From contig JBGSSW010000004.1 in the NCBI GenBank assembly GCA_041736805.1, forward strand, positions 51,843-115,842: DNA of 64,000 nucleotides, in the 5' to 3' direction. The translations under genes were made by a program, and so were the position numbers. The number at the start of each line of letters is the position of its first letter. Positions within the stretch are counted from its first letter, which is position 1. The stretch comes from Minisyncoccia bacterium. Lineage in GTDB: Bacteria > Patescibacteriota > Minisyncoccia > Phycocordibacterales > UBA918. Positions 32,558 to 57,318 of the stretch are shown here, in pieces. The notes beneath the pieces were generated by a model. It did not search any database and had not been told where the DNA came from. It saw only the letters and a list, made by a program, of their open reading frames with translations.

Positions 32558-32630
32558 GGGCCCTTAGCTCATCCGGTAGAGCGCTTCCATGGCATGGAAG
32601 AGGTGAGCGGTTCAAGTCCGCTAGGGTCCA
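32558..32630 (+). tRNA. tRNA-Ala (anticodon GGC), 73 nt, CCA not encoded
   Basis: Acceptor GGGCCCT/AGGGTCC with G3:U70. Anticodon stem CTTCC/GGAAG, loop ATGGCAT (anticodon GGC). T-arm AGCGG-TTCAAGT-CCGCT. Discriminator A. Confidence 0.8.
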
Positions 32631-32632
32631 CA
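32616..32632 (+). repeat. 17-nt direct repeat copy 1 (gtccgctagggtccaca), the 3' end of tRNA-Ala(GGC); att-core-like
   Basis: Identical 17-mer recurs at 32800-32816. Confidence 0.6.
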
Positions 32633-32799: not shown

Positions 32800-32816
32800 G
32801 TCCGCTAGGGTCCACA
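32800..32816 (+). repeat. 17-nt direct repeat copy 2 (gtccgctagggtccaca), a duplicated tRNA-Ala 3' end with no tRNA body upstream
   Basis: Exact copy of the tRNA 3' end, 184 bp downstream of copy 1. Upstream sequence (cgtcaggatct) does not form a T-arm. Confidence 0.6.
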
Positions 32817-32887: not shown

Positions 32888-33262
32888 ATGGTCGCTCTCA
32901 AACGTCAGAACATCCCCGCTGGCAAGTTCCGTGTCCTCGGCTGCGACCTGTTCGATCACTCGGTCGACGTCGTCGAAGACTGCGACACCAAGGACGAGGC
33001 CTTCAAGATCGCCGACGACCACAACCGTCAGCGCACGGGGTCGATGTCCGACGTGTACTACGTCTACAACGACAAAGGCAGCTATCACCGTGGCGAGGAA
33101 GCGATCAAGAATGCCAAGGGCGAGAGACCACCGTCAGCGTCAGCCCGTAAACGCAAGCGTCGGCATTGCCGGCACGAGACCCCAGAGATAACATCAAGGG
33201 GTCTCATTTCGTTTATAATTCTACTTTTCACTCAAACTCTTTGCAAAGTAGGACATCCTTGA
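32888..33262 (+). CDS. small GC-rich gene of foreign composition, hypothetical protein; 3' end uncertain (possibly a shorter product or frameshifted)
   Basis: Strong SD (AAAGGAG) 8 nt upstream of the ATG. Pronounced GC3 codon bias in this frame (gtc, ctc, ggc, aag, ttc, gac) for the first ~80 codons, fading after ~33120. Competing overlapping frames look like GC-rich noise. Confidence 0.4.
   Translation: MVALKRQNIPAGKFRVLGCDLFDHSVDVVEDCDTKDEAFKIADDHNRQRTGSMSDVYYVYNDKGSYHRGEEAIKNAKGERPPSASARKRKRRHCRHETPEITSRGLISFIILLFTQTLCKVGHP
33176..33213 (+). terminator. hairpin (GAGACCCC...GGGGTCTC) at the end of the first GC-rich cassette
   Basis: 8-bp GC stem with a 14-nt loop. A weak T-rich tail follows. 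Confidence 0.35.
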
Positions 33263-33327
33263 TACGTCACCCAAGACTTCATTAAATATCCCCTAAATTG
33301 GTTCTGTAAATTTCCACTATAGTCCAC
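33242..33327 (+). repeat. 86-bp direct repeat DR1, containing a promoter-like TTGATA-17-TTAAAT and ending in a degenerate tRNA-Ala 3'-end-like ctatagtccac
   Basis: About 92% identical to DR2 at 33816-33901. Each copy sits just after a cassette terminator. Confidence 0.6.
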
Positions 33328-33398
33328 GAGTACAGAAAGAGCGCCTTTGTTGTTCGTGGACTATAAGCAAGCAAACTACCTTGCTTGCTTGAGGCCTT

Positions 33399-33427
33399 TT
33401 CGTGTAGATTGACAAGTCACACTATTC
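33399..33427 (+). promoter_or_regulatory. putative sigma-70 promoter TTGACA-17-TAGTAT upstream of the 33478 gene
   Basis: Consensus -35 TTGACA at 33399-33404, 17-nt spacer, -10 TAGTAT at 33422-33427. SD AGGAG precedes the ATG at 33478. Confidence 0.4.
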
Positions 33428-33477
33428 ATGCTAGTATTTTGAATGAAATTCTTGTTATTCCACAACCAGGAGATGTC

Positions 33478-33747
33478 ATGGCGATTTTGAAATGTCGTTA
33501 TTGCAAAGAAGGTGTGCTTACGGGCGCGCGTCATCACTGCAAGCAAATGCAACTTGCAAAACAACCATCGGCTGTTGTCGATGAGAGTGAAGGAAGCATC
33601 TTTCTCTCATTCGCGGTCGCAGCGGCAACAGACAATTGGGCAATTGGGACGCTTGTTGGAGGCAATCTCATTGGTGGAATTGTCGGCGACGCAGTAGTAG
33701 GAAACAACGACTCATGTAACGACGGTGACTCTGGTAGCGACGACTGA
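33478..33747 (+). CDS. small protein (89 aa) with N-terminal Cys/His cluster (CRYC...HHC), glycine-zipper hydrophobic segment and acidic tail; hypothetical (bacteriocin- or membrane-peptide-like)
   Basis: ATG preceded by AGGAG. Sequence MAILKCRYCKEGVLTGARHHCKQ...FLSFAVAAATDNWAIGTLVGGNLIGGIVGDAVVGNNDSCNDGDSGSDD. The ORF track's 33385 start is an upstream extension lacking an SD. Confidence 0.5.
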   Translation: MAILKCRYCKEGVLTGARHHCKQMQLAKQPSAVVDESEGSIFLSFAVAAATDNWAIGTLVGGNLIGGIVGDAVVGNNDSCNDGDSGSDD

Positions 33748-33805: not shown

Positions 33806-33815
33806 TCTAAAATTA

Positions 33816-33901
33816 ACTGCAAAGTAGGACAAGATTGATACGTCACCCAAAACTTCATTAAATACCCCCTACATTGGTTCTGTAAATTTCCCCTATAGTC
33901 C
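33816..33901 (+). repeat. 86-bp direct repeat DR2 (copy of DR1)
   Basis: tgcaaagtaggacaAGATtgatacgtcacccaaAacttcattaaataCcccctaCattggttctgtaaatttccCctatagtccac. About 7 mismatches to DR1. Confidence 0.6.
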
Positions 33902-35494: not shown

Positions 35495-38400
35495 TTAATC
35501 GTGTAACTTTCCTGGCCATCGATCATATATAATTGGTACCAAAACAAGCGTAATAATTACTGAAAATGTTAAGCCGAAAATTACAGCGGTAGCAAGTGGT
35601 ACCCAAATCGGGTCTGAGTAAAGCAAGGGCACCATACCAACAATTGTAGTTAAGGAAGTCAATATAATAGGTCTTAACCTACTAACTGCAGCGTCAATTA
35701 CAATTGTATCAATTGCTTTATTTGGAAACTTTAGTCTCATTTCGTTCATTCTATCGATCAATAGAATGGAATTGTTAACAATAATACCAGTTAAGGCTAT
35801 GAAGCCCATAATAGAAGGGAAGGAAAGAGCACTACCAGTAATGGCAAGTCCAAATAAAATTCCAATTAAAGAGAAAGGAACGATAGATAGAACGTAGGCT
35901 GTGTACCTAAATGAGTTAAACTCCAGTACCAAGACAGCTATCATTAGAACTAGTCCGATTATCAAAGCTAGGAATAGCTCTATAAAGGCTTGATTTGAAT
36001 CTTCTGCTTCTCCTCCAAAGGCATAACTTACGTCAGTCGGAAACTGTGAACTCGATTCAATTTTTTTAGAAAGTTCATTATTGATTTCAATTACATTGCC
36101 ACTTGCAGTAATATCAGCCGAAACTGTAACGACTCTTGATTGATTTTCATGATTAATTGCACTACTAGATTCACGTAGTGAAGTAACAATTAAAGAAGAC
36201 AAAATAATACTGTCCCCTTGATTATTTTTAATCGATATATTATTTAACGAGTCTATGGTAGTACGATTGGTTTGGGCTGCATCTATTTGGTCATTGCCAG
36301 TTAAGTTTAGTCTAACCACTACAGGGATGTCTTCATTTACAGTAGTTAAATTTGTTGCTTCTGTCCCATAAACAGCAGCTCTGAGAGTCTGAGAAACAAC
36401 CAGAGGGTTTAGTCCTGCAGCTGCCGTTTTAGCCTTATCTAAAGTCAAAACGTATTCAATATTATTACTTGTATTGCTAGTTTGAATATTGGTCACACCA
36501 ACTATTTCGTCCAATAAATCAGCTACCAAATTTGCTGCTTTATCAAGCTCAATTAAATCATTTCCCATTAATTTGACTCCAATTGGACTGCCGGTAGGAG
36601 GACCATTGTTTGGTTCAGAAACTGTAATTAAAGCTCCTTTAATTACAGGTATTTCGTTGCGTAGTTTTGTTATAAATTCAGTACTAGTTATTGTTCTATC
36701 ATCCTTTAAGTTAATTGTTATATTAGCGAGTTTTTCATTTTTTCCGCCACCTAAGAAAGCGCTACCTGAACCAACAGTAACGGCGTGAGCTTCAATAATG
36801 TCTTTGTTCTTATAAAGTACTTCTTCTACTTGTCTCACAACCAAATCAGTACTTTCTTTAATACTACCTTCAGGTAGTTTAATTTCAATATAAATCTGTG
36901 GAGTATCAGTTTGTTCAAAGAAAACAACTTTAACTAATCCAGCTGGAATCAAAGCTAAAGAAATAAAAAATAAAGAAATAATAACTGTCAGAAATATTTT
37001 TTTTCCCTTCTTACTTGTTATTAGTTTTTCAATATTTTTTCTATACCAACCCTGAATTTTAATATTTATTTTTTCTCCGGCACTTAGATCACTTTCTGCC
37101 AAAATGACCTTCGCTCCTTTAAGAAAACTAGATGATATAAGTGGAATAAATCCAATGGCGACAAGAAGCGAAGCAAAGAGCACAAAGATTAGGGTAAAGG
37201 GAATACCGGAAATAAACTGTCCAGTGACACCAGAAACAATAAATAGGCCTACAAACATTGCTACCGTAGTTAAAGTACCAGAGGTAATCGGACTAGCAAA
37301 ATCAACAACTGCTTTTCTTGTTACTTCTTTCTTACTCCAATCTGGGTGATCAGAAATATTTTTGTTTATTCCTTCCACCATTACAATACCTGCGTCAACT
37401 AAAACACCAATACCAAGAATTAGCGCAAATAAACTGATAAAGTTTATGGTATTACCTGAAAGATAGAGTCCAATAAAGCCAATTGTGAACGAAAGGGGTA
37501 TTGATAGTCCAGCCAGCAAACCCTCACGCCAGCCAATCATTAGTACCAAAACAAGCATGACCATCACGACAGTTTGAAGACCAGACGATGTTAAATTTTT
37601 TAAGTCATGAGCAATGTCTGCTCCAGCATCTTGTATCGTGTAAATAGTTAAATTATGTAGGAGCTGGCCTTCTGCTTGAAGTTCAACCAACTTTTCTTGA
37701 ACGGATTTTGTAATTTTTGTAATATCTCCACCGCTTTGCTTGTAAATGTCAAAACTTGCTCCAGTAAACGAAGGCTTACCGTCGATACTTAGTCTAGTAA
37801 TTGAATTTGAAGGACTCAAACCATCATCAACTATCGCAATATCTCTAACATAAACTGGCTGCCCCCCTCGGGTTGCAATTGGAATGTTAGCAACTTCTGA
37901 ACGGTCCTCGATGTCACCAAAAAAAGAAACATTATATGAAATATCTCCGGTCACTATTTGCCCGATTGGAAAGGTACTGTTAGCTGAACGTAAACCATTT
38001 ATTACATCTGAAACAGTTAAATCATATCGTGAGAGAGCTGTTGGGCTAGTGATTAAAGTTATTTCTCGTGTTCTAACGCCTTGAACCTCTACTTTTGAAA
38101 CGCCTGTCAAAGATTCCAATTCGCTCTCTAGTTTATCTGACATTTGAGTGAACTCTGCATCTGAAAGACTTCCAGACACTGAAATTGTTGTTATCGGCTG
38201 ATTGACGAAATCAATCTGTGTCACTCTAGGGTCTTCTGCATTGTCAGGTAAGTCTGAAATAACGGTATCAACTGCGTCTTTTAAATCTTGGATTGAGGCA
38301 TCTAAGTCAGCGCTAGCTTCAAACTCTACGGTTATTAATGAAACGCTTTCATTAGAAACTGAAGTTATTGATTTAACTTGTGTTAAGGAACTTGCTAGTG

Positions 38401-38602
38401 TTCTTTCTATTTCATTAGTAACTAAATTTTCAACATCGCTGGCTGGAGCTCCAGGTAGAATGGTAGTAACAATACCAACAGGAATTACAACCTCAGGAGC
38501 AGATTCCTTTGGAATTGAAATGGCCGAGTAAACTCCAAACAAGATTAGTGATGCAATTAGCAGGTAAGTAAACCTACTGTTTTTTAAGAAAAATTCCCAC
38601 AT
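35495..38602 (-). CDS. RND-family efflux transporter permease (AcrB/HAE-like, 12 TM)
   Basis: 1035 aa. Two large periplasmic loops and two 6-TM bundles. Conserved RND segments (e.g. GIVMVEGINKNIS..., ILTSLTTIVGMVPL). Confidence 0.85.
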   Translation of the reverse strand: MWEFFLKNSRFTYLLIASLILFGVYSAISIPKESAPEVVIPVGIVTTILPGAPASDVENLVTNEIERTLASSLTQVKSITSVSNESVSLITVEFEASADLDASIQDLKDAVDTVISDLPDNAEDPRVTQIDFVNQPITTISVSGSLSDAEFTQMSDKLESELESLTGVSKVEVQGVRTREITLITSPTALSRYDLTVSDVINGLRSANSTFPIGQIVTGDISYNVSFFGDIEDRSEVANIPIATRGGQPVYVRDIAIVDDGLSPSNSITRLSIDGKPSFTGASFDIYKQSGGDITKITKSVQEKLVELQAEGQLLHNLTIYTIQDAGADIAHDLKNLTSSGLQTVVMVMLVLVLMIGWREGLLAGLSIPLSFTIGFIGLYLSGNTINFISLFALILGIGVLVDAGIVMVEGINKNISDHPDWSKKEVTRKAVVDFASPITSGTLTTVAMFVGLFIVSGVTGQFISGIPFTLIFVLFASLLVAIGFIPLISSSFLKGAKVILAESDLSAGEKINIKIQGWYRKNIEKLITSKKGKKIFLTVIISLFFISLALIPAGLVKVVFFEQTDTPQIYIEIKLPEGSIKESTDLVVRQVEEVLYKNKDIIEAHAVTVGSGSAFLGGGKNEKLANITINLKDDRTITSTEFITKLRNEIPVIKGALITVSEPNNGPPTGSPIGVKLMGNDLIELDKAANLVADLLDEIVGVTNIQTSNTSNNIEYVLTLDKAKTAAAGLNPLVVSQTLRAAVYGTEATNLTTVNEDIPVVVRLNLTGNDQIDAAQTNRTTIDSLNNISIKNNQGDSIILSSLIVTSLRESSSAINHENQSRVVTVSADITASGNVIEINNELSKKIESSSQFPTDVSYAFGGEAEDSNQAFIELFLALIIGLVLMIAVLVLEFNSFRYTAYVLSIVPFSLIGILFGLAITGSALSFPSIMGFIALTGIIVNNSILLIDRMNEMRLKFPNKAIDTIVIDAAVSRLRPIILTSLTTIVGMVPLLYSDPIWVPLATAVIFGLTFSVIITLVLVPIIYDRWPGKLHD

Positions 38603-38609
38603 AAAATAT

Positions 38610-40154
38610 TTACTTGCTTACTTCCGTTACTTTTGTACCTTCGACAAGACCTCGTGCATCTACAACAATTTTTGTATTCAAATCAATTCCTGAACTAATT
38701 GTTACTCTTTCTCCTCTAATTGTACCCAGTTCCACGTCTTGTCTTTTTAATAGTTCAGACTCAACCAAAAATACATAACTAACCGGACCGTCGAACTTTA
38801 CTGAGGATAAAGGAATTTGAGTCTCAACCAACGTTTGAGTTTTAGCTTTAGGAACAAATAATCGAACCGTATCTCCATTTTGAAATCCAGACCCAACAAC
38901 CGCTACTCTGACTTCAATTTTTCCAGTCTGATTATCAACAACTGGAGAAACATTAGTTACCGTACCGGTACCATTACCTTCAAGTATTAAATTGTCGCCA
39001 ATTGTAATCAAATCCCTTTCGTTTACTCCAATGTAGGTAGTAATTTCAAGACCTTGATTGTTAGCAATTTGAGCCACTGGGGCAAAAGCCGATAGATAAT
39101 CTCCAGTTTTAATCGATAAAGTATTAACTTGACCAGCAATAGGTGTTCTAATAATTGTTTTTGCGTAGTTTGATTGAGCAGCTCGCAGTGAACCTAATGC
39201 TTGTTTTACTTGAGCGTCTGCCGTTGAATAGTTATTACTTGATCCTCCAGCAATATCTGCACGATTTTTAGCCTCCAAAGCCGCTGTAAGAGCTGAAGAA
39301 GCTCTGTCCAAAGAATCTATTGTGGTATTTAAGCTTGTCCGAGCGGCACCAAAAGTGGCTAAGTCAAGTTGAATCTCCGCGTCGGTGTAACCTAAGGTAG
39401 AATCCTCTTTTTGCAGAACGCTGATGAATGTATCCACTATGTCAATTAAATTTTGTGTAGCTGACTTTGCTTCTAGGTAAATTTCATTAAGATTATCTGT
39501 TGTCTTGGTACTTTCTGTTTTTTGCTGCCAAAGAGGCAAGGATTTCTGTAATTTTACTCTTTCTTCATTTAAATAAGTAGTATACCCTCGTCCATTGATT
39601 CGTAAGCCGGGCACATATGCAAATGGATTTCCAAAAAATTGGTCAATTGTCCCAATCACAATAGTATTATTTGTGTTATAAGCAGCTTTATAGGCAGATA
39701 AAGAAGCATTTTGCGCAGCTAAAAAAGAATTTTCAGCCTCAGTCACTCCAATCAAGCCTTGCTGTGAACCAGCCAAAGCTGCTTCATAAGCCCCTTCCGC
39801 TTGCAATAAAACGGCACTTTGTGCTGAATTCTCCAAGGTAGCAATCACTGTTCCAGCAGAAACGGTTTGTCCCAAAGAGACATTAACAGAGGTAACCCGT
39901 CCACCAACCTCAGATAGTAGGCCAGCTTGTGTTTTTGCTGCAACAACTCCAATCAATTCAACTGATTGGTTATTATTTAGTTGCGCTGGTGTAGCTGTTT
40001 CAACTAGATTTACAATTGCTTTAACTTCTAAATCAGCGGCGTCGTCATTTGAAGTTAATGTTGAAACTACAGCCACAAATAATAGGGTAATCAAGATATA
40101 CGTCCGAAAGGGTCGAACGTATCTTTGATATAAACTTAACAACATGCTTTTCAT
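38610..40154 (-). CDS. RND efflux periplasmic adaptor (membrane fusion protein, HlyD-like), unusually long coiled-coil
   Basis: N-terminal TM. Lipoyl/beta-barrel motifs (RTPIAGQVNTLSIKTGDYLSAFAPVAQIA; VTNVSPVVDNQTGKIEVRVAV). Stop is 8 bp from the permease start, so an operon. Confidence 0.7.
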   Translation of the reverse strand: MKSMLLSLYQRYVRPFRTYILITLLFVAVVSTLTSNDDAADLEVKAIVNLVETATPAQLNNNQSVELIGVVAAKTQAGLLSEVGGRVTSVNVSLGQTVSAGTVIATLENSAQSAVLLQAEGAYEAALAGSQQGLIGVTEAENSFLAAQNASLSAYKAAYNTNNTIVIGTIDQFFGNPFAYVPGLRINGRGYTTYLNEERVKLQKSLPLWQQKTESTKTTDNLNEIYLEAKSATQNLIDIVDTFISVLQKEDSTLGYTDAEIQLDLATFGAARTSLNTTIDSLDRASSALTAALEAKNRADIAGGSSNNYSTADAQVKQALGSLRAAQSNYAKTIIRTPIAGQVNTLSIKTGDYLSAFAPVAQIANNQGLEITTYIGVNERDLITIGDNLILEGNGTGTVTNVSPVVDNQTGKIEVRVAVVGSGFQNGDTVRLFVPKAKTQTLVETQIPLSSVKFDGPVSYVFLVESELLKRQDVELGTIRGERVTISSGIDLNTKIVVDARGLVEGTKVTEVSK

Positions 40155-40275
40155 ACTAATTGAATGACTTAATTTTGCGCAAAATAATAAGCTGGAATAA
40201 TAACACTAAATTTTCAATTTGTCTATATCTAAAAAATTATTGCTAACGATTTTTGCGTGATAGAATAACAATCTT

Positions 40276-40590
40276 ATGTTTGGAAAATTAAAACAATTTG
40301 CCCTAAAAAAAGTATTACAATCGCAGATGAAAGATGCTCCGCCTGAGCAACAAAAAATGCTCCTTGAAATGCTGGATAAAGACCCGGCTCTATTTGAGAA
40401 AATCGCCAAAGAAATGCAGGCTGAATTAAAAAAGAACGGTAACAACCAAATGTCAGCTGCCATGAAAGTGCTACCTAAGTACCAAAAGGAAATAATGTCG
40501 GCCATGAGTCCAGAAATGAAAGATCAAATGATAAAGATGCAAATGGGTTCTCAAGGTAAATTTAATCCTAACGGTTCAATTAGGCGCTAA
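40276..40590 (+). CDS. small Lys/Met-rich helical protein, hypothetical
   Basis: 104 aa, low complexity (MKDAPPEQQKMLLEMLDKDPALFEKIAKEMQAELKK...MSAMSPEMKDQMIKMQMGS). Followed by a hairpin. Confidence 0.35.
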   Translation: MFGKLKQFALKKVLQSQMKDAPPEQQKMLLEMLDKDPALFEKIAKEMQAELKKNGNNQMSAAMKVLPKYQKEIMSAMSPEMKDQMIKMQMGSQGKFNPNGSIRR

Positions 40591-40617
40591 GTAAATCAAG
40601 TAGTTTTGAAAGTAATC

Positions 40618-40648
40618 AACACACCGCAAGCTTTGCTTGCGGTGTGTT
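40618..40648 (+). terminator. hairpin after the 40276 gene (AACACACCGCAAGC-ttt-GCTTGCGGTGTGTT)
   Basis: Perfect 14-bp stem. No clear T-tract. Confidence 0.4.
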
Positions 40649-40666
40649 CAGTTATACTAGTCATAT

Positions 40667-41251
40667 ATGCAAAATCCTAAAAAAATTCTTATTATTTGCG
40701 GTCACCCAGACCATGAATCATTTAGTGGAAACGTGGCTGATCATTATCAAGTTGGGGCCGAAGACGCTGGTCATACTGTTGTAAGAGTGAACCTAGGCCA
40801 ACTAAACTTTGACCCAATTTTGCACAAAGGATACAAAGAGATTCAACAGCTTGAACCAGATTTAATTGATTTACAAAATAAATTTAAGGAAGCTGATCAC
40901 ATTGTAATTTTATATCCAAATTGGTGGTGTACTATGCCTGCCTTACTTAAAGGTCTTTTTGATAGATTTTGGCTGCCTGGATTTGCTTTCAACTTCAATA
41001 AGCAAACCAAAAAAATTGAAAAACACCTGTCTGGAAAAACTGGTCGAGTTATTATTCTTTCTGGTTCGCATACTCCATTTCAAACCTGGTGGAAGTTTGG
41101 TGACTATACAAACGAAATTCAATACGGGATTTTAGAATTTGCTGGTATTAGAACTCAAGTTAGCTCATACGGACCTTGTGAAAAAGTTAACGATGAAATA
41201 AGAGGGAAGTGGCTAAAAGAGGTAGAAAACCTAGGAAAAAAGGCCTTTTGA
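40667..41251 (+). CDS. flavodoxin-fold NAD(P)H dehydrogenase (quinone)-like oxidoreductase (Flavodoxin_2/MdaB/KefG-like)
   Basis: KKILIICGHPDHESFSGNVADHY..., DHIVILYPNWWCTMPALLKGLFDRFWLPGFAF. Confidence 0.75.
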   Translation: MQNPKKILIICGHPDHESFSGNVADHYQVGAEDAGHTVVRVNLGQLNFDPILHKGYKEIQQLEPDLIDLQNKFKEADHIVILYPNWWCTMPALLKGLFDRFWLPGFAFNFNKQTKKIEKHLSGKTGRVIILSGSHTPFQTWWKFGDYTNEIQYGILEFAGIRTQVSSYGPCEKVNDEIRGKWLKEVENLGKKAF

Positions 41252-41265
41252 AGCCCCAAAATACA

Positions 41266-41294
41266 TTGACTTTTTAGTCATTTCGTGCTATACT
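41266..41294 (+). promoter_or_regulatory. putative sigma-70 promoter TTGACT-17-TATACT driving the GC-rich lipoprotein gene pair
   Basis: -35 at 41266-41271, -10 at 41289-41294, ATG at 41330. Confidence 0.4.
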
Positions 41295-41329
41295 CTAAAT
41301 AGAAGGTTCTTCACATTGAGGAATCAAAA

Positions 41330-41722
41330 ATGGAGTACGGTATGTACACGAAGTATTTTTTCACCCTGGTTCTCGTTGCCCTTTTTGCTGGTTGTGCCAG
41401 CAACGAAAGCTACCATTCATCGCGTCGCAATGCGGTGCCGGTGGATGAACTCGGATCGCGCGGGGCCACCTTTGCCGGCCAAGCCCAGCAGTTCCATCAG
41501 AACAACATGGCCATGAGTGTGTGCCCCAACGGCACAATCACGAAAAAAGGCGGTGGCTCGATGAACGCCGGAGCTGGTGACCAGAGTGGCCGAGTGACCT
41601 ACAGTGTCACCTCAGCCAGTCAGTTCAAAGAAGAATGCGACTACGGTGAACAAAACCAGGCACCAAAAACGCCGGCTCGTAACGTTGGAGAAAACCCGAC
41701 CAAGAAGGAGAAGCGGCAATGA
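41330..41722 (+). CDS. small lipoprotein (lipobox LFAGC), GC-rich foreign-looking gene
   Basis: MEYGMYTKYFFTLVLVALFAGCASN... signal peptide plus lipobox. GC3-biased codons. Competing overlapping frames rejected. Confidence 0.5.
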   Translation: MEYGMYTKYFFTLVLVALFAGCASNESYHSSRRNAVPVDELGSRGATFAGQAQQFHQNNMAMSVCPNGTITKKGGGSMNAGAGDQSGRVTYSVTSASQFKEECDYGEQNQAPKTPARNVGENPTKKEKRQ

Positions 41723-41973
41723 GGCTTCTTTGCGCAGCTCTCGCCATTGCAATGTCGGGTTGCGCCAGTACCAACTATTACGTCGAAAGCGACATTCCAG
41801 GCCTAGCCGGAAAAATTGCTGAGGGAATGCAATCAATCCCTCAGCACTCCTGTCAGCCTGGAGAAAAAGTTTTGATGCTCTCAAGAGCAGATTCCAACTG
41901 CACGAAAGCTGGTTGTCGGGAGAAATTCCAGAAGAAAATTTCCTGCCAAAAAGCAACCCCAGAGCGCCGCTAA
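41719..41973 (+). CDS. small lipoprotein (lipobox MSGC), GC-rich, translationally coupled to the previous gene (ATGA overlap)
   Basis: MRLLCAALAIAMSGCASTNYYVES... Start overlaps the upstream stop. Confidence 0.5.
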   Translation: MRLLCAALAIAMSGCASTNYYVESDIPGLAGKIAEGMQSIPQHSCQPGEKVLMLSRADSNCTKAGCREKFQKKISCQKATPERR

Positions 41974-41996
41974 CATGTTAGCTGGCGCTCTTTTTT
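41961..41996 (+). terminator. strong rho-independent terminator (bidirectional; the minus-strand mltG also ends here)
   Basis: AGAGCGCCGCTAACA...TGTTAGCTGGCGCTCT, a ~14-bp stem with one bulge, followed by TTTTTT. Confidence 0.7.
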
Positions 41997-42014
41997 ATAT
42001 TCAATTTTATAAGA

Positions 42015-43031
42015 TTACTTACCTCGACCGTATATTTCCTTTAGTTTATTGACGTGCTCTTCGTAGGTAACACTACAATAAAATTGACCTTTAGGTCCAT
42101 GAAAATAGTACATGCAGTCTGTATTTTTTGGGTTTAAAGCAGCAACAATTGCTTCAGTTGAAGGATTTGAAATTGGGGCTGGTGGTAATCCGATGTTTGC
42201 GTAGGTATTGTATGGTGAATCAATAAACTTATCGGCTGGAATGACTTTTGGCCACCAATGTTTTTCCGAAGTCTTACTACCTTTGGCATACTGTAGGGTA
42301 GCGTCTAGTTGTAGTGGCATATCAATGAAAAGCCGATTCCAAATTACACCTGAAATATATCTCATGTCATTAAAGTCATAGGCTTCACGTTCAATTAATG
42401 AAGCAATCGTCAGACCATCTATTAAAGGTACTTGTTGTTCAACACTCTCATCATATTGCTTTAAAATTTCTTGATTAAAATTTTCATATAAGACATCAGC
42501 CACATTTTCTGGTGTAGCTTCAATACTGACAATATATCTTCCGGGGAAGAACTTACCTTCTGCTAGAGCAGGTTCCGCTTCAGTTATATATGAAGCAAAA
42601 AGATCTTGTTCAGCTTTGTTCCACTTTAAAATTTCGGCAAAATCAGCGATGATTTCTTCCTTCCTTTCACCAGAGTAAATTACTAAAATGCGACTGACTG
42701 GTGAAGCCAGATTTTGATAGAAATCCCATTTTGCAATTTGTGCAAGCAGTTTATCTTGGAAACGCTTTTTTCTGGAGTCAGCAACCTTTATGGAAAGGTA
42801 GGTTTCGACATATAAATCAACAGCTGGATTTTCTGTAATTAACTTAGTAGCAGTGTTTACACCAACCGGGAACTTATCCTGCCCTTGAACTTGAGTAAGT
42901 GTGTAGGTATTACTTTTAAAGTAGAAAGCATTAAACCAAACAAAAAACGCTAGTGATGCGAATAATATAAAAAGAAGAAGAGAAATTACTATCTTCCTGG
43001 TTAAGTTTACCGGCCTTTTAATAGACGTCAT
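42015..43031 (-). CDS. mltG: endolytic murein transglycosylase MltG (YceG-like)
   Basis: N-terminal TM. YceG signature ...LQYAKGSK...IDSPYNTYANIGLPPAPISNPSTEAIVAALNP...YYF. Confidence 0.8.
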   Translation of the reverse strand: MTSIKRPVNLTRKIVISLLLFILFASLAFFVWFNAFYFKSNTYTLTQVQGQDKFPVGVNTATKLITENPAVDLYVETYLSIKVADSRKKRFQDKLLAQIAKWDFYQNLASPVSRILVIYSGERKEEIIADFAEILKWNKAEQDLFASYITEAEPALAEGKFFPGRYIVSIEATPENVADVLYENFNQEILKQYDESVEQQVPLIDGLTIASLIEREAYDFNDMRYISGVIWNRLFIDMPLQLDATLQYAKGSKTSEKHWWPKVIPADKFIDSPYNTYANIGLPPAPISNPSTEAIVAALNPKNTDCMYYFHGPKGQFYCSVTYEEHVNKLKEIYGRGK

Positions 43032-56286: not shown

Positions 56287-57318
56287 ATGTCTGACGAAAC
56301 AGAAAACATTATATTTGGGCAGTACAACGAATCTACTTTGGAAGCACCTCTTAAAAAAAATAAGTGGCTGTTTGTAATTTGCTTTCTTTCGCTGTTGACA
56401 CTGTTTTTTTCTTTATCACTGATTTTTATTAAAAATTACGCCACAAAGCCGCCAAATGAATTTCCAATTAATTCTACTTTTGTTGTTGAAAAAGGAGCTA
56501 GTACTTGGAGTGTAATTCAAGCGGCTAAGCAACAAAGATTAATCAGATATGAACTAGCCTTATATTTTGAATTAAAACTTAATCACCCAGAGGATTTAAT
56601 CAAGGCCGGTACCTATACTTTTTCTAAGCCCCTAGACTTAGCAGAGCTGGCTACTGAGCTGACTTTGGGAAATCACTTAAGCGATTTAGTTAAAATTACC
56701 AATATTGAAGGGGAAACTTCTGTTCAAGTGGCGAATAAAGCCGCTAGTGTCTTAACCAACTTTAACGCGCAAATTTTTATAGAAATGGCCAAACCACTCG
56801 AAGGAAGACTTTTTCCTGATACCTATTTAGTTCCCAAATACTTTACTGAAGCAAAATTAGTGTATTTACTTACTTCTACTTTTGAGGAAAAAATTTCAGC
56901 CTACAAGGATAGAATTTTAGCTAGTAAGCTCAGTTTGGATGATATTATTATCCTTGCTTCAATTTTAGAAAGAGAAGCAAATACTATGGAAAGCAAAAAA
57001 ATAGTTTCGGGTATTTTGCAAAAAAGACTTTCTATAAATATGCCCTTACAAGTAGACGCTTCACTTGAGTACGTACTTGATAAACCGCTTTCTAAACTTA
57101 CCGCCGAAGACTTAGATATAGACTCACCATACAACACATACTTAAATTATGGTTTACCTCCTACGGCAATAGGTAATCCAGGATTAGACTCGATTATCGC
57201 AGTTTTGGAGCCTGAAGAAACAAACTATCTTTTTTATATAACTGGAGACGATGGTAATTTTTATTACGCTAAAGATTTTGACACCCATAAATTAAATGTG
57301 GCCAAATACTTGCGCTAA
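56287..57318 (+). CDS. mltG: second MltG/YceG-like endolytic transglycosylase paralog
   Basis: N-terminal TM. LQVDASLEYV..., DIDSPYNTYLNYGLPPTAIGNPGLDSIIAVLEP...YLFYI is the YceG signature. Confidence 0.75.
   Translation: MSDETENIIFGQYNESTLEAPLKKNKWLFVICFLSLLTLFFSLSLIFIKNYATKPPNEFPINSTFVVEKGASTWSVIQAAKQQRLIRYELALYFELKLNHPEDLIKAGTYTFSKPLDLAELATELTLGNHLSDLVKITNIEGETSVQVANKAASVLTNFNAQIFIEMAKPLEGRLFPDTYLVPKYFTEAKLVYLLTSTFEEKISAYKDRILASKLSLDDIIILASILEREANTMESKKIVSGILQKRLSINMPLQVDASLEYVLDKPLSKLTAEDLDIDSPYNTYLNYGLPPTAIGNPGLDSIIAVLEPEETNYLFYITGDDGNFYYAKDFDTHKLNVAKYLR

Follow-up and report, generated by a model that had tools for sequence, protein, structure and literature searches.

A syntenic, probably old two-gene lipoprotein operon with GC-rich coding sequences in an AT-rich bacterium of the Candidate Phyla Radiation

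Introduction

The lpp and ompA genes of Escherichia coli (the latter with a 5' stem-loop) are highly expressed small envelope-protein genes with stabilised messenger RNAs (mRNAs), and the Vlp and Vsa loci of Mycoplasma are variable surface lipoprotein loci of small-genome, host-associated bacteria. Here we describe an operon of two small lipoprotein genes, named lipoA and lipoB below, that shares traits with both kinds of system. It lies in a 64-kb stretch of contig JBGSSW010000004.1 of a Minisyncoccia bacterium; this full stretch, called the window throughout, is AT-rich (38% GC overall), and its nearest relatives are metagenome-assembled Candidatus Paceibacteria/Parcubacteria of the Candidate Phyla Radiation (CPR).

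The preliminary description of this DNA had seen in positions 41266-41996 a compositionally deviant module of two lipoprotein genes with its own promoter and terminator, and had taken it for a recent horizontal acquisition. The anatomy was right, and the origin was probably another one: in our view the best reading of the locus is an old, syntenic bicistronic lipoprotein operon of a CPR (Paceibacteria/Parcubacteria-like) clade and not a recent import. The operon consists of the following elements:

41266-41271 and 41289-41294, plus strand: sigma-70-type promoter, with -35 TTGACT, a 17-nt spacer and -10 TATACT; the -10 is extended (TGcTATACT, 41286-41294, with the TG at 41286-41287)
41305-41325, plus strand: stem-loop in the 5' untranslated region (5'-UTR), 9 pairs with a 3-nt loop, -9.0 kcal/mol, a few nt from the predicted transcript start
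41332-41335, plus strand: Shine-Dalgarno sequence GGAG, 6 nt 5' of ATG 41342, aligned with AGGAG of the orthologues
41342-41722, plus strand: lipoA, 126-aa prolipoprotein, lipobox LFAG/C18
41719-41973, plus strand: lipoB, 84-aa prolipoprotein, lipobox AMSG/C15
41961-41996, plus strand: intrinsic terminator, 13-pair stem with one bulge (41961-41991) and T6 at 41991-41996

Results

Orthologues and synteny

Both lipoproteins were searched against 5.8 billion clustered proteins, as had been proposed earlier. Besides its own entry, P0001, lipoA had three homologues there (52-57% identity), and no homologue of lipoB was called. An exhaustive search of 1.84 billion representatives with a lipoA profile returned 7 proteins, while the same profile found no match in JGI metagenome contigs and viral contigs, and tblastn of lipoA against plasmids and phages none either. 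Every homologue with a recoverable context sits in one CPR gene context, defined in the window by three neighbours:

40276-40590, plus strand: p104, a Lys/Glu/Met-rich protein of 104 aa without a family, upstream neighbour
40667-41251, plus strand: flavodoxin-like NAD(P)H oxidoreductase (Pfam Flavodoxin_2, E 1.5e-32)
42015-43031, minus strand: YceG/MltG-family protein of 338 aa (Pfam YceG, E 2e-49), convergent neighbour, called mltG below

In the metagenome-assembled genome JTS-AC455 (locus L001), the order is RND (resistance-nodulation-division) pump, membrane-fusion protein, p104, flavodoxin-like gene, lipoA, lipoB, TspO and mltG. Locus L010 is arranged as L001, and in the 573-bp contig L011 the same promoter and UTR precede lipoA. 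The lipoB orthologue of L001 had been left uncalled and overlaps lipoA by GTGA; another lipoB is present in L010, and the two are 37-43% identical to that of the window. Between the window and L001, amino-acid identity was 85% for p104, 84% for the flavodoxin-like protein and 65% for MltG, 52% for lipoA and 37% for lipoB, so that the lipoproteins diverge much faster than the products of the neighbour genes. Synonymous divergence (pS) was saturated, at 0.61-0.86 between lipoA/lipoB and their orthologues and 0.66-0.83 in the flanking genes. For lipoA, non-synonymous divergence (pN, 0.31-0.37) remained well under pS (0.72-0.77); we thus regard lipoA and lipoB as real genes under purifying selection.

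GC-richness is shared by these relatives. In four lineages the GC content at third codon positions (GC3) of the pair was 0.42-0.72, against 0.27-0.34 in their flanks, and in five lineages the GC-rich tract ran from the start of the coding sequence (CDS) to the terminator, with an AT-rich promoter/UTR and AT-rich downstream spacers. Since GC3 is high despite saturated pS, an import that has not yet ameliorated cannot explain it. By standard amelioration reasoning, a neutral foreign segment would relax to the host equilibrium, which suggests that the GC-richness is maintained.

More distant pairs were also detected. The lipoB profile picked up second-gene homologues in L020 (E 1.7e-6), L091 (E 2.9e-5) and L036 (E 1.2e-3), and those of L093 and L094 were found via P0015 and P0016. 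Pairs with a lipoB-type gene behind a first small lipoprotein lie directly 3' of the flavodoxin-like gene in L020, L036, L041/45, L091, L093 and L094-96, usually with a stop/start overlap; a similar pair in L022 is unconfirmed (lipoB profile E 0.25). The first genes of these distant pairs share with lipoA the topology only (lipobox, helix, C-P-x-G, about 35 residues, Cys, basic tail), their hidden Markov model (HMM) scores against lipoA not being significant. Presence and absence among relatives, which was to be checked, thus gave a divided answer: the pair occupies the same slot in at least 10 relatives, with non-native composition in most and native composition in L036 and L091, and many other relatives are without it. 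By the yardstick proposed earlier, orthologues at the same locus, this speaks largely against a recent acquisition. In L020 (4583-5180) and L091 (1082-1600), an additional stretch of about 500-600 bp lies between the flavodoxin-like gene and the lipoprotein promoter; in L020 this stretch starts with the flavodoxin-like gene's own terminator.

Promoter, leader and terminator

The promoter described earlier, TTGACT-17-TATACT, is present with a TG extension. It scored 10/12, the top match in the region, and promoter-like matches in the region were at chance level (8 found vs 9.0 +/- 3.2 in shuffles). We therefore did not use motif strength alone as evidence and relied on conservation: TTGACT, 16-17 nt and TAnnnT recur at the same position in 11 module-bearing loci. 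The Shine-Dalgarno sequence is kept in all 11, and a hairpin stands at the equivalent 5'-UTR position in 8 of them. In an alignment of six sequences, 89.6% of the cells of this hairpin pair, vs at most 50% with the partners slid, and four of the eight pairs show compensatory changes; an Rfam search found no family match for it.

In L001 (9923-9937), L011 (8-22) and L093, the promoter spacer contains a palindrome, AGCACA-N3/4-TGTGCT, that lies over the extended -10 and could be an operator. The copy in the window (41274-41288) is degenerate: AGTCATTTCGTGCT.

The terminator folds at -20.7 kcal/mol (z -4.85), none of 200 shuffles folding as well, and its stem contains the lipoB stop codon. The preliminary description had given it a 14-bp stem and T6; the strong stem and T6 stand, the stem being one of 13 pairs with one bulge. 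Terminator conservation was examined at three loci, the window, L001 and L010, and strong terminators with different stem sequences are also present in L001 and L010 (z -7.5). Use of the window's terminator by the convergent mltG as well, as claimed earlier, is conjectural: the mltG stop codon lies at 42015-42017, but reading along the minus strand one meets GGGGTTGCTTTTT after the stem, with the U-run displaced by 7 nt.

The downstream boundary of the slot is mltG in the window, L093, L020, L036 and L041. A TspO gene stands between the terminator and mltG in L001 (10776-11174) and L010 (784-996). Many relatives have this TspO/MBR gene at the same place, between lipoB and mltG; it is missing there in the window (41997-42014) and in L093, and the window has no TspO homologue elsewhere. 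The window contains two YceG/MltG paralogues, 42015-43031 on the minus strand and 56287-57318 on the plus strand, 36% identical over 179 aa.

The two lipoproteins

The open reading frame (ORF) containing lipoA spans 41330-41722, and ATG 41342 is the likelier start, given the GGAG aligned with the orthologues and the start of the database protein P0001 at the same codon. Both signal peptides have a positively charged n-region and a hydrophobic h-region (MYTK-YFFTLVLVALF in lipoA, MR-LLCAALAIAM in lipoB), and both products satisfy the PROSITE PS51257-type lipobox rule at Cys18 and Cys15, respectively, with Gly-Cys invariant in the alignments of both families. The lipoA stop and the lipoB start overlap as ATGA, which implies translational coupling and, by inference, an output of about 1:1. 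The earlier statement of two coupled small lipoproteins with lipoboxes LFAGC and MSGC was thus confirmed.

Mature lipoA comprises a predicted helix (AVPVDELGSRGATFAGQAQQFHQNNM) and a tail rich in K, P and Q, and its Cys61 and Cys99 are invariant; lipoB has the motif YVESDIPGLAG and conserved Cys45 and Cys76. We infer from these features that both products are exported, lipidated and anchored on the outer face of the membrane, and that each protein forms one disulfide, Cys61/Cys99 in lipoA and Cys45/Cys76 in lipoB. The two may possibly associate as a heterodimer. The fast divergence relative to the neighbours, together with the variable slot described below, suggests an exposed cell-surface or envelope role.

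Searches of lipoA, lipoB and their relatives against Pfam, NCBIfam, PHROGs and PADLOC gave nothing above threshold, and a sequence-profile search of the PDB returned noise alone (E 0.65-0.9). The best sub-threshold matches were TrwH/VirB7, over the signal peptide only (E 0.9), and Lipoprotein_21 LppP/LprE (E 0.017, obtained from a distant relative). An AlphaFold2 model of lipoB, with a predicted local distance difference test (pLDDT) score of 71, has a beta-alpha-beta-beta fold. No Lgt or LspA gene was seen among the annotated ORFs of the 64-kb window.

We also considered lipoA and lipoB as paralogues and rejected the idea: hhalign aligned only the signal peptide and lipobox (28 columns).

Base composition of the block

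The profile of windowed GC and GC3 bore out the claim that the block is markedly richer in GC than its AT-rich neighbours. Windows of 300 bp spanning 41300-41999 had a GC of 0.49-0.57, against 0.34-0.39 (about 0.36) on both flanks, and the 1-kb bin with the highest GC of the whole 64 kb was 41001-42000 (0.469). The block is GC-rich, as claimed, over a narrower extent than 41266-41996: the GC-rich tract proper is the coding sequence, at about 41350-41990. It leaves out the promoter and 5'-UTR (41252-41341), whose GC is native-like (0.36), and the 18 bp 3' of the terminator have a GC of 0.11. Within the tract, GC is 0.43 in the signal-peptide codons, 0.57 in mature lipoA and 0.50 in lipoB.

GC3 was 0.61-0.62 in lipoA and 0.50 in lipoB, the median of 49 ORFs of the window being 0.29, and GC at first and second codon positions (GC1/GC2) was also higher than the window average (0.55/0.47 and 0.51/0.50 in the two genes). 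When lipoA and lipoB were recoded with the codon usage of the window, the expected GC was 0.43 and the expected GC3 0.30, against 0.53 and 0.57 observed; amino-acid composition lifts the expected GC merely from about 0.38 to 0.43. A composition rich in Gly, Ala, Arg, Pro and Thr thus accounts for about one third of the GC excess, and synonymous codon choice for about two thirds. C-ending codons are preferred in the operon relative to the background: AAC 91% vs 29%, TAC 71% vs 39%, TTC 57% vs 21% and TGC 67% vs 24%. The likeness in codon style to an island next to a tRNA gene, also claimed earlier, was found in GC3 (0.62 and 0.50 vs 0.67 in ORF 32888-33262) and in C-ending codons, and not otherwise.

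The variable slot

A metagenome scan with the flavodoxin-like protein yielded 80 loci with 69-87% amino-acid identity, almost all of them preceded by p104 (62-91% identity across the 80 loci). The contents of the slot that follows vary: pairs of the lipoA/lipoB type, many single lipoproteins of other families (for instance '...HYPSKTQEKFPRGK...C' and 'GCLEVTPNPDFY'), or nothing. About half of the assessable loci have an empty slot, with TspO, an S49/NfeD gene or YchF coming next after the flavodoxin-like gene. Of 24 distinct first lipoprotein genes of the slot, 22 had a higher GC3 than the adjacent flavodoxin-like gene (mean +0.12, Wilcoxon p 5e-5), the largest contrast among the 24 being that of the window (+0.35). 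The offset thus characterises the lipoprotein genes that occupy this position across the clade and does not stem from one import.

In two more distant relatives, L007 (6992-7330) and L009 (6947-7420), unrelated small lipoproteins convergent with mltG were seen on the minus strand; on their other side lies the flavodoxin-like gene or the end of the contig. They are rich in Gly, Pro, Tyr, His and Arg, end in ...PPPTPRW or ...GPGRRW, and suggest another lipoprotein family at the same position.

The conserved block upstream of the slot covers 35495-41251 in the window and was also seen in L001, L093, L094 and the 80 metagenome loci. In it, an AcrB-type RND transporter and a membrane-fusion protein, on the minus strand, are divergent from p104 and the flavodoxin-like gene. 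GC content ranges from 35% to 51% among loci whose flavodoxin-like protein is 75-87% identical to that of the window (L013, L014 and L027-L032 vs the window, L034 and L036).

Other features of the window

The gene for tRNA-Ala(ggc) at 32558-32631 has a 17-bp copy of its own 3' end about 170 bp further on (GTCCGCTAGGGTCCACA, at 32616-32632 and 32800-32816). It is followed by the GC-rich ORF 32888-33262 (124 aa, GC3 0.67, no Pfam or PHROG match). This site, the tRNA-adjacent island mentioned above, looks like the remnant of a small integrated element. A direct repeat of about 90 bp occurs at 33240-33330 and 33810-33900 (...gcaaagtaggaca..ttgatacgtcacccaa.acttcattaaata.cccct.aattggttctgtaaatttcc.ctatagtccac), and an ORF of 120 aa without family match (33385-33747) lies between the two copies. 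The sequence of the window is also present in the Logan runs SRR28170467 and SRR28170465.

Discussion

In the proposed working of the operon, transcription would start about 7 nt 3' of the near-consensus extended -10. The mRNA would present first the 5' stem-loop, a putative protective element, then the Shine-Dalgarno sequence, lipoA and lipoB coupled by ATGA, and last the strong intrinsic terminator. Both prolipoproteins would follow the standard Lgt/LspA pathway, with Sec-type export, diacylglycerol modification and cleavage before Cys18 (lipoA) or Cys15 (lipoB), after which the mature lipoproteins would be anchored on the outer face of the cell membrane.

As for the reason why the genes are GC-rich, we consider it fairly probable that GC is kept high by selection acting on the mRNA of an operon with strong expression. 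The C-ending codons for Asn, Tyr and Phe are the usual translationally preferred codons in bacteria. The near-consensus extended -10, 5' hairpin, strong Shine-Dalgarno sequence, terminator and C-ending codons of the operon fit strong expression. The signs that point to such selection are the C-ending Asn, Tyr, Phe, Cys and Asp codons, a U-poor, more structured and presumably stabler mRNA, and the 5' hairpin. Nine homologous lipoA and lipoB coding sequences all folded more stably than their synonymous-codon shuffles (z -1.3 to -6.2), whereas 26 control segments of window genes had a mean z of -0.6 (Mann-Whitney p 8e-4); the whole transcript folded with a z of -3.6.

The alternative that survives best treats the slot as a hot spot in which lipoprotein cassettes are gained, lost and exchanged by homologous recombination via the conserved flanks, and in which GC-biased gene conversion (gBGC) keeps GC3 high; we regard it as possible and clearly less likely than not. 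An association between recombination and GC3 has been reported in bacteria (PMC4450053). This alternative is favoured by the varied contents of the slot among loci with 69-87% identical flanks, some having pairs, some a single lipoprotein from one of at least three or four other families and some nothing, and by the range of genome GC in the clade (0.35-0.51), so that there are GC-richer donors among the relatives. It also accommodates the raised GC3 across unrelated slot families and the fact that G-ending as well as C-ending codons are enriched. Against it, the GC-rich tract has sharp limits that coincide with those of the CDS, whereas tracts left by recombination should also reach into the flanks. 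Promoter and UTR are conserved together with the genes, and gene conversion does not predict the excess mRNA structure.

A recently acquired cassette from a GC-richer donor, not yet ameliorated, as the preliminary description had it, appears very improbable to us. The strong local contrast in GC and GC3, the complete regulatory punctuation and the tiny, patchy family (4-7 homologues among billions of proteins) do speak for an import, and the atypical composition expected of a genomic island was found in both GC and GC3. Yet orthologues with the same regulatory elements occupy the same slot between flanks that are only 65-85% identical and saturated at synonymous sites, their GC-richness is likewise limited to the CDS, and all homologues with a recoverable context lie in one CPR gene context, none having been found in phages, plasmids or viral contigs. 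At the borders we found no integrase or transposase and no flanking direct repeats, only short chance repeats; the nearest tRNAs are 9 kb from the operon, whose neighbours are housekeeping genes. Furthermore, unrelated lipoprotein families in the slot also exceed their neighbour in GC3 (the 22 of 24 cases above). Related CPR lineages may nevertheless have exchanged cassettes here, or the operon may have been gained long ago.

It is hardly credible that amino-acid composition, or chance in two short genes, produced the GC excess: Gly, Ala, Arg, Pro, Thr and Ser are indeed frequent in the proteins, with GC1 and GC2 above the window average, but the recoding calculation refutes it and the same excess recurs in orthologues. 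Equally little weight can be given to a second function of the GC-rich DNA, as a structured non-coding RNA, an antisense gene or a DNA-level element; the folding stabler than that of codon-shuffled controls and a 114-aa ORF on the minus strand (41612-41956) would agree with it, but there is no Rfam match, and since stop codons are AT-rich, GC-rich DNA will readily contain long ORFs on its antisense strand. It is the sense ORFs that are under purifying selection and keep their lipoboxes, and saturated synonymous sites imply that the primary sequence is not kept beyond the protein level.

Several observations weigh against an old operon kept GC-rich by selection on its transcript. Many relatives with equally similar flanks are without the pair, so strict vertical descent is not proven, and when trees of the flanks and of lipoA/lipoB were compared for congruence the lipoproteins were in the twilight zone. 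The pairs of L036 and L091 have a near-native GC3 (0.27-0.39), from which it follows that high GC is not obligatory for function. G-ending codons (CAG, ACG, CCG, GTG, TCG) are enriched too, which is unexpected under simple tRNA-adaptation selection, and the window has no ribosomal-protein or EF-Tu genes to serve as a reference for codon usage. In the folding analysis, the window's own lipoA and lipoB (z -1.3 and -2.6) lie within the control range, and the nine coding sequences are homologues and not independent. As regards the proteins, the structure model of lipoA is poor (pLDDT 47) and that of lipoB has no significant structural neighbour.

The locus thus indicates that a sharp island of GC and codon usage with full regulatory punctuation need not mean horizontal acquisition. 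For the biology of CPR it draws attention to two uncharacterised lipoproteins that evolve fast and are restricted to one clade, and to a slot with variable lipoprotein content; reduced-genome CPR depend on attachment to a host, which surface lipoproteins could plausibly mediate. More speculatively, and with rather low confidence, the slot could be a hypervariable surface-lipoprotein locus of episymbiotic CPR, a functional analogue of the variable lipoprotein loci of mycoplasmas, in which lipoA and lipoB would form an abundant disulfide-stabilised heterodimer for host-cell contact or serve as a phage target, and in which the excess of GC3 and mRNA structure would be the signature of gBGC at a recombination hot spot or of selection for a long-lived mRNA. 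If this were true, surface loci of other AT-rich uncultivated bacteria might be recognised by the same signature.

Among known systems, genomic islands share with the operon the deviant GC and codon usage and the patchy distribution; unlike them, the operon has no mobility genes, att repeats or border tRNA, is syntenic over saturated divergence and deviates in its CDS only. The Vlp and Vsa loci of Mycoplasma likewise hold fast-evolving, lineage-variable small lipoproteins in a fixed slot of a reduced genome. In the slot described here, however, neither repeats nor invertible promoters nor a multigene phase-variation machinery were seen, and the variation is between lineages. With lipoproteins in general, the substrates of Lgt and LspA covered by PROSITE PS51257, lipoA and lipoB have in common the charged N-terminus, hydrophobic core, lipobox and small mature domains, although no described lipoprotein family of Pfam, NCBIfam or the PDB matches their mature parts. 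Compared with E. coli lpp and ompA, the operon shows no sequence relationship and consists of two coupled genes in a monoderm-like CPR host; the resemblance is one of expression architecture, with a near-consensus promoter, a 5' stem-loop, a Shine-Dalgarno sequence, a terminator, C-ending codons and a small lipoprotein as the product.

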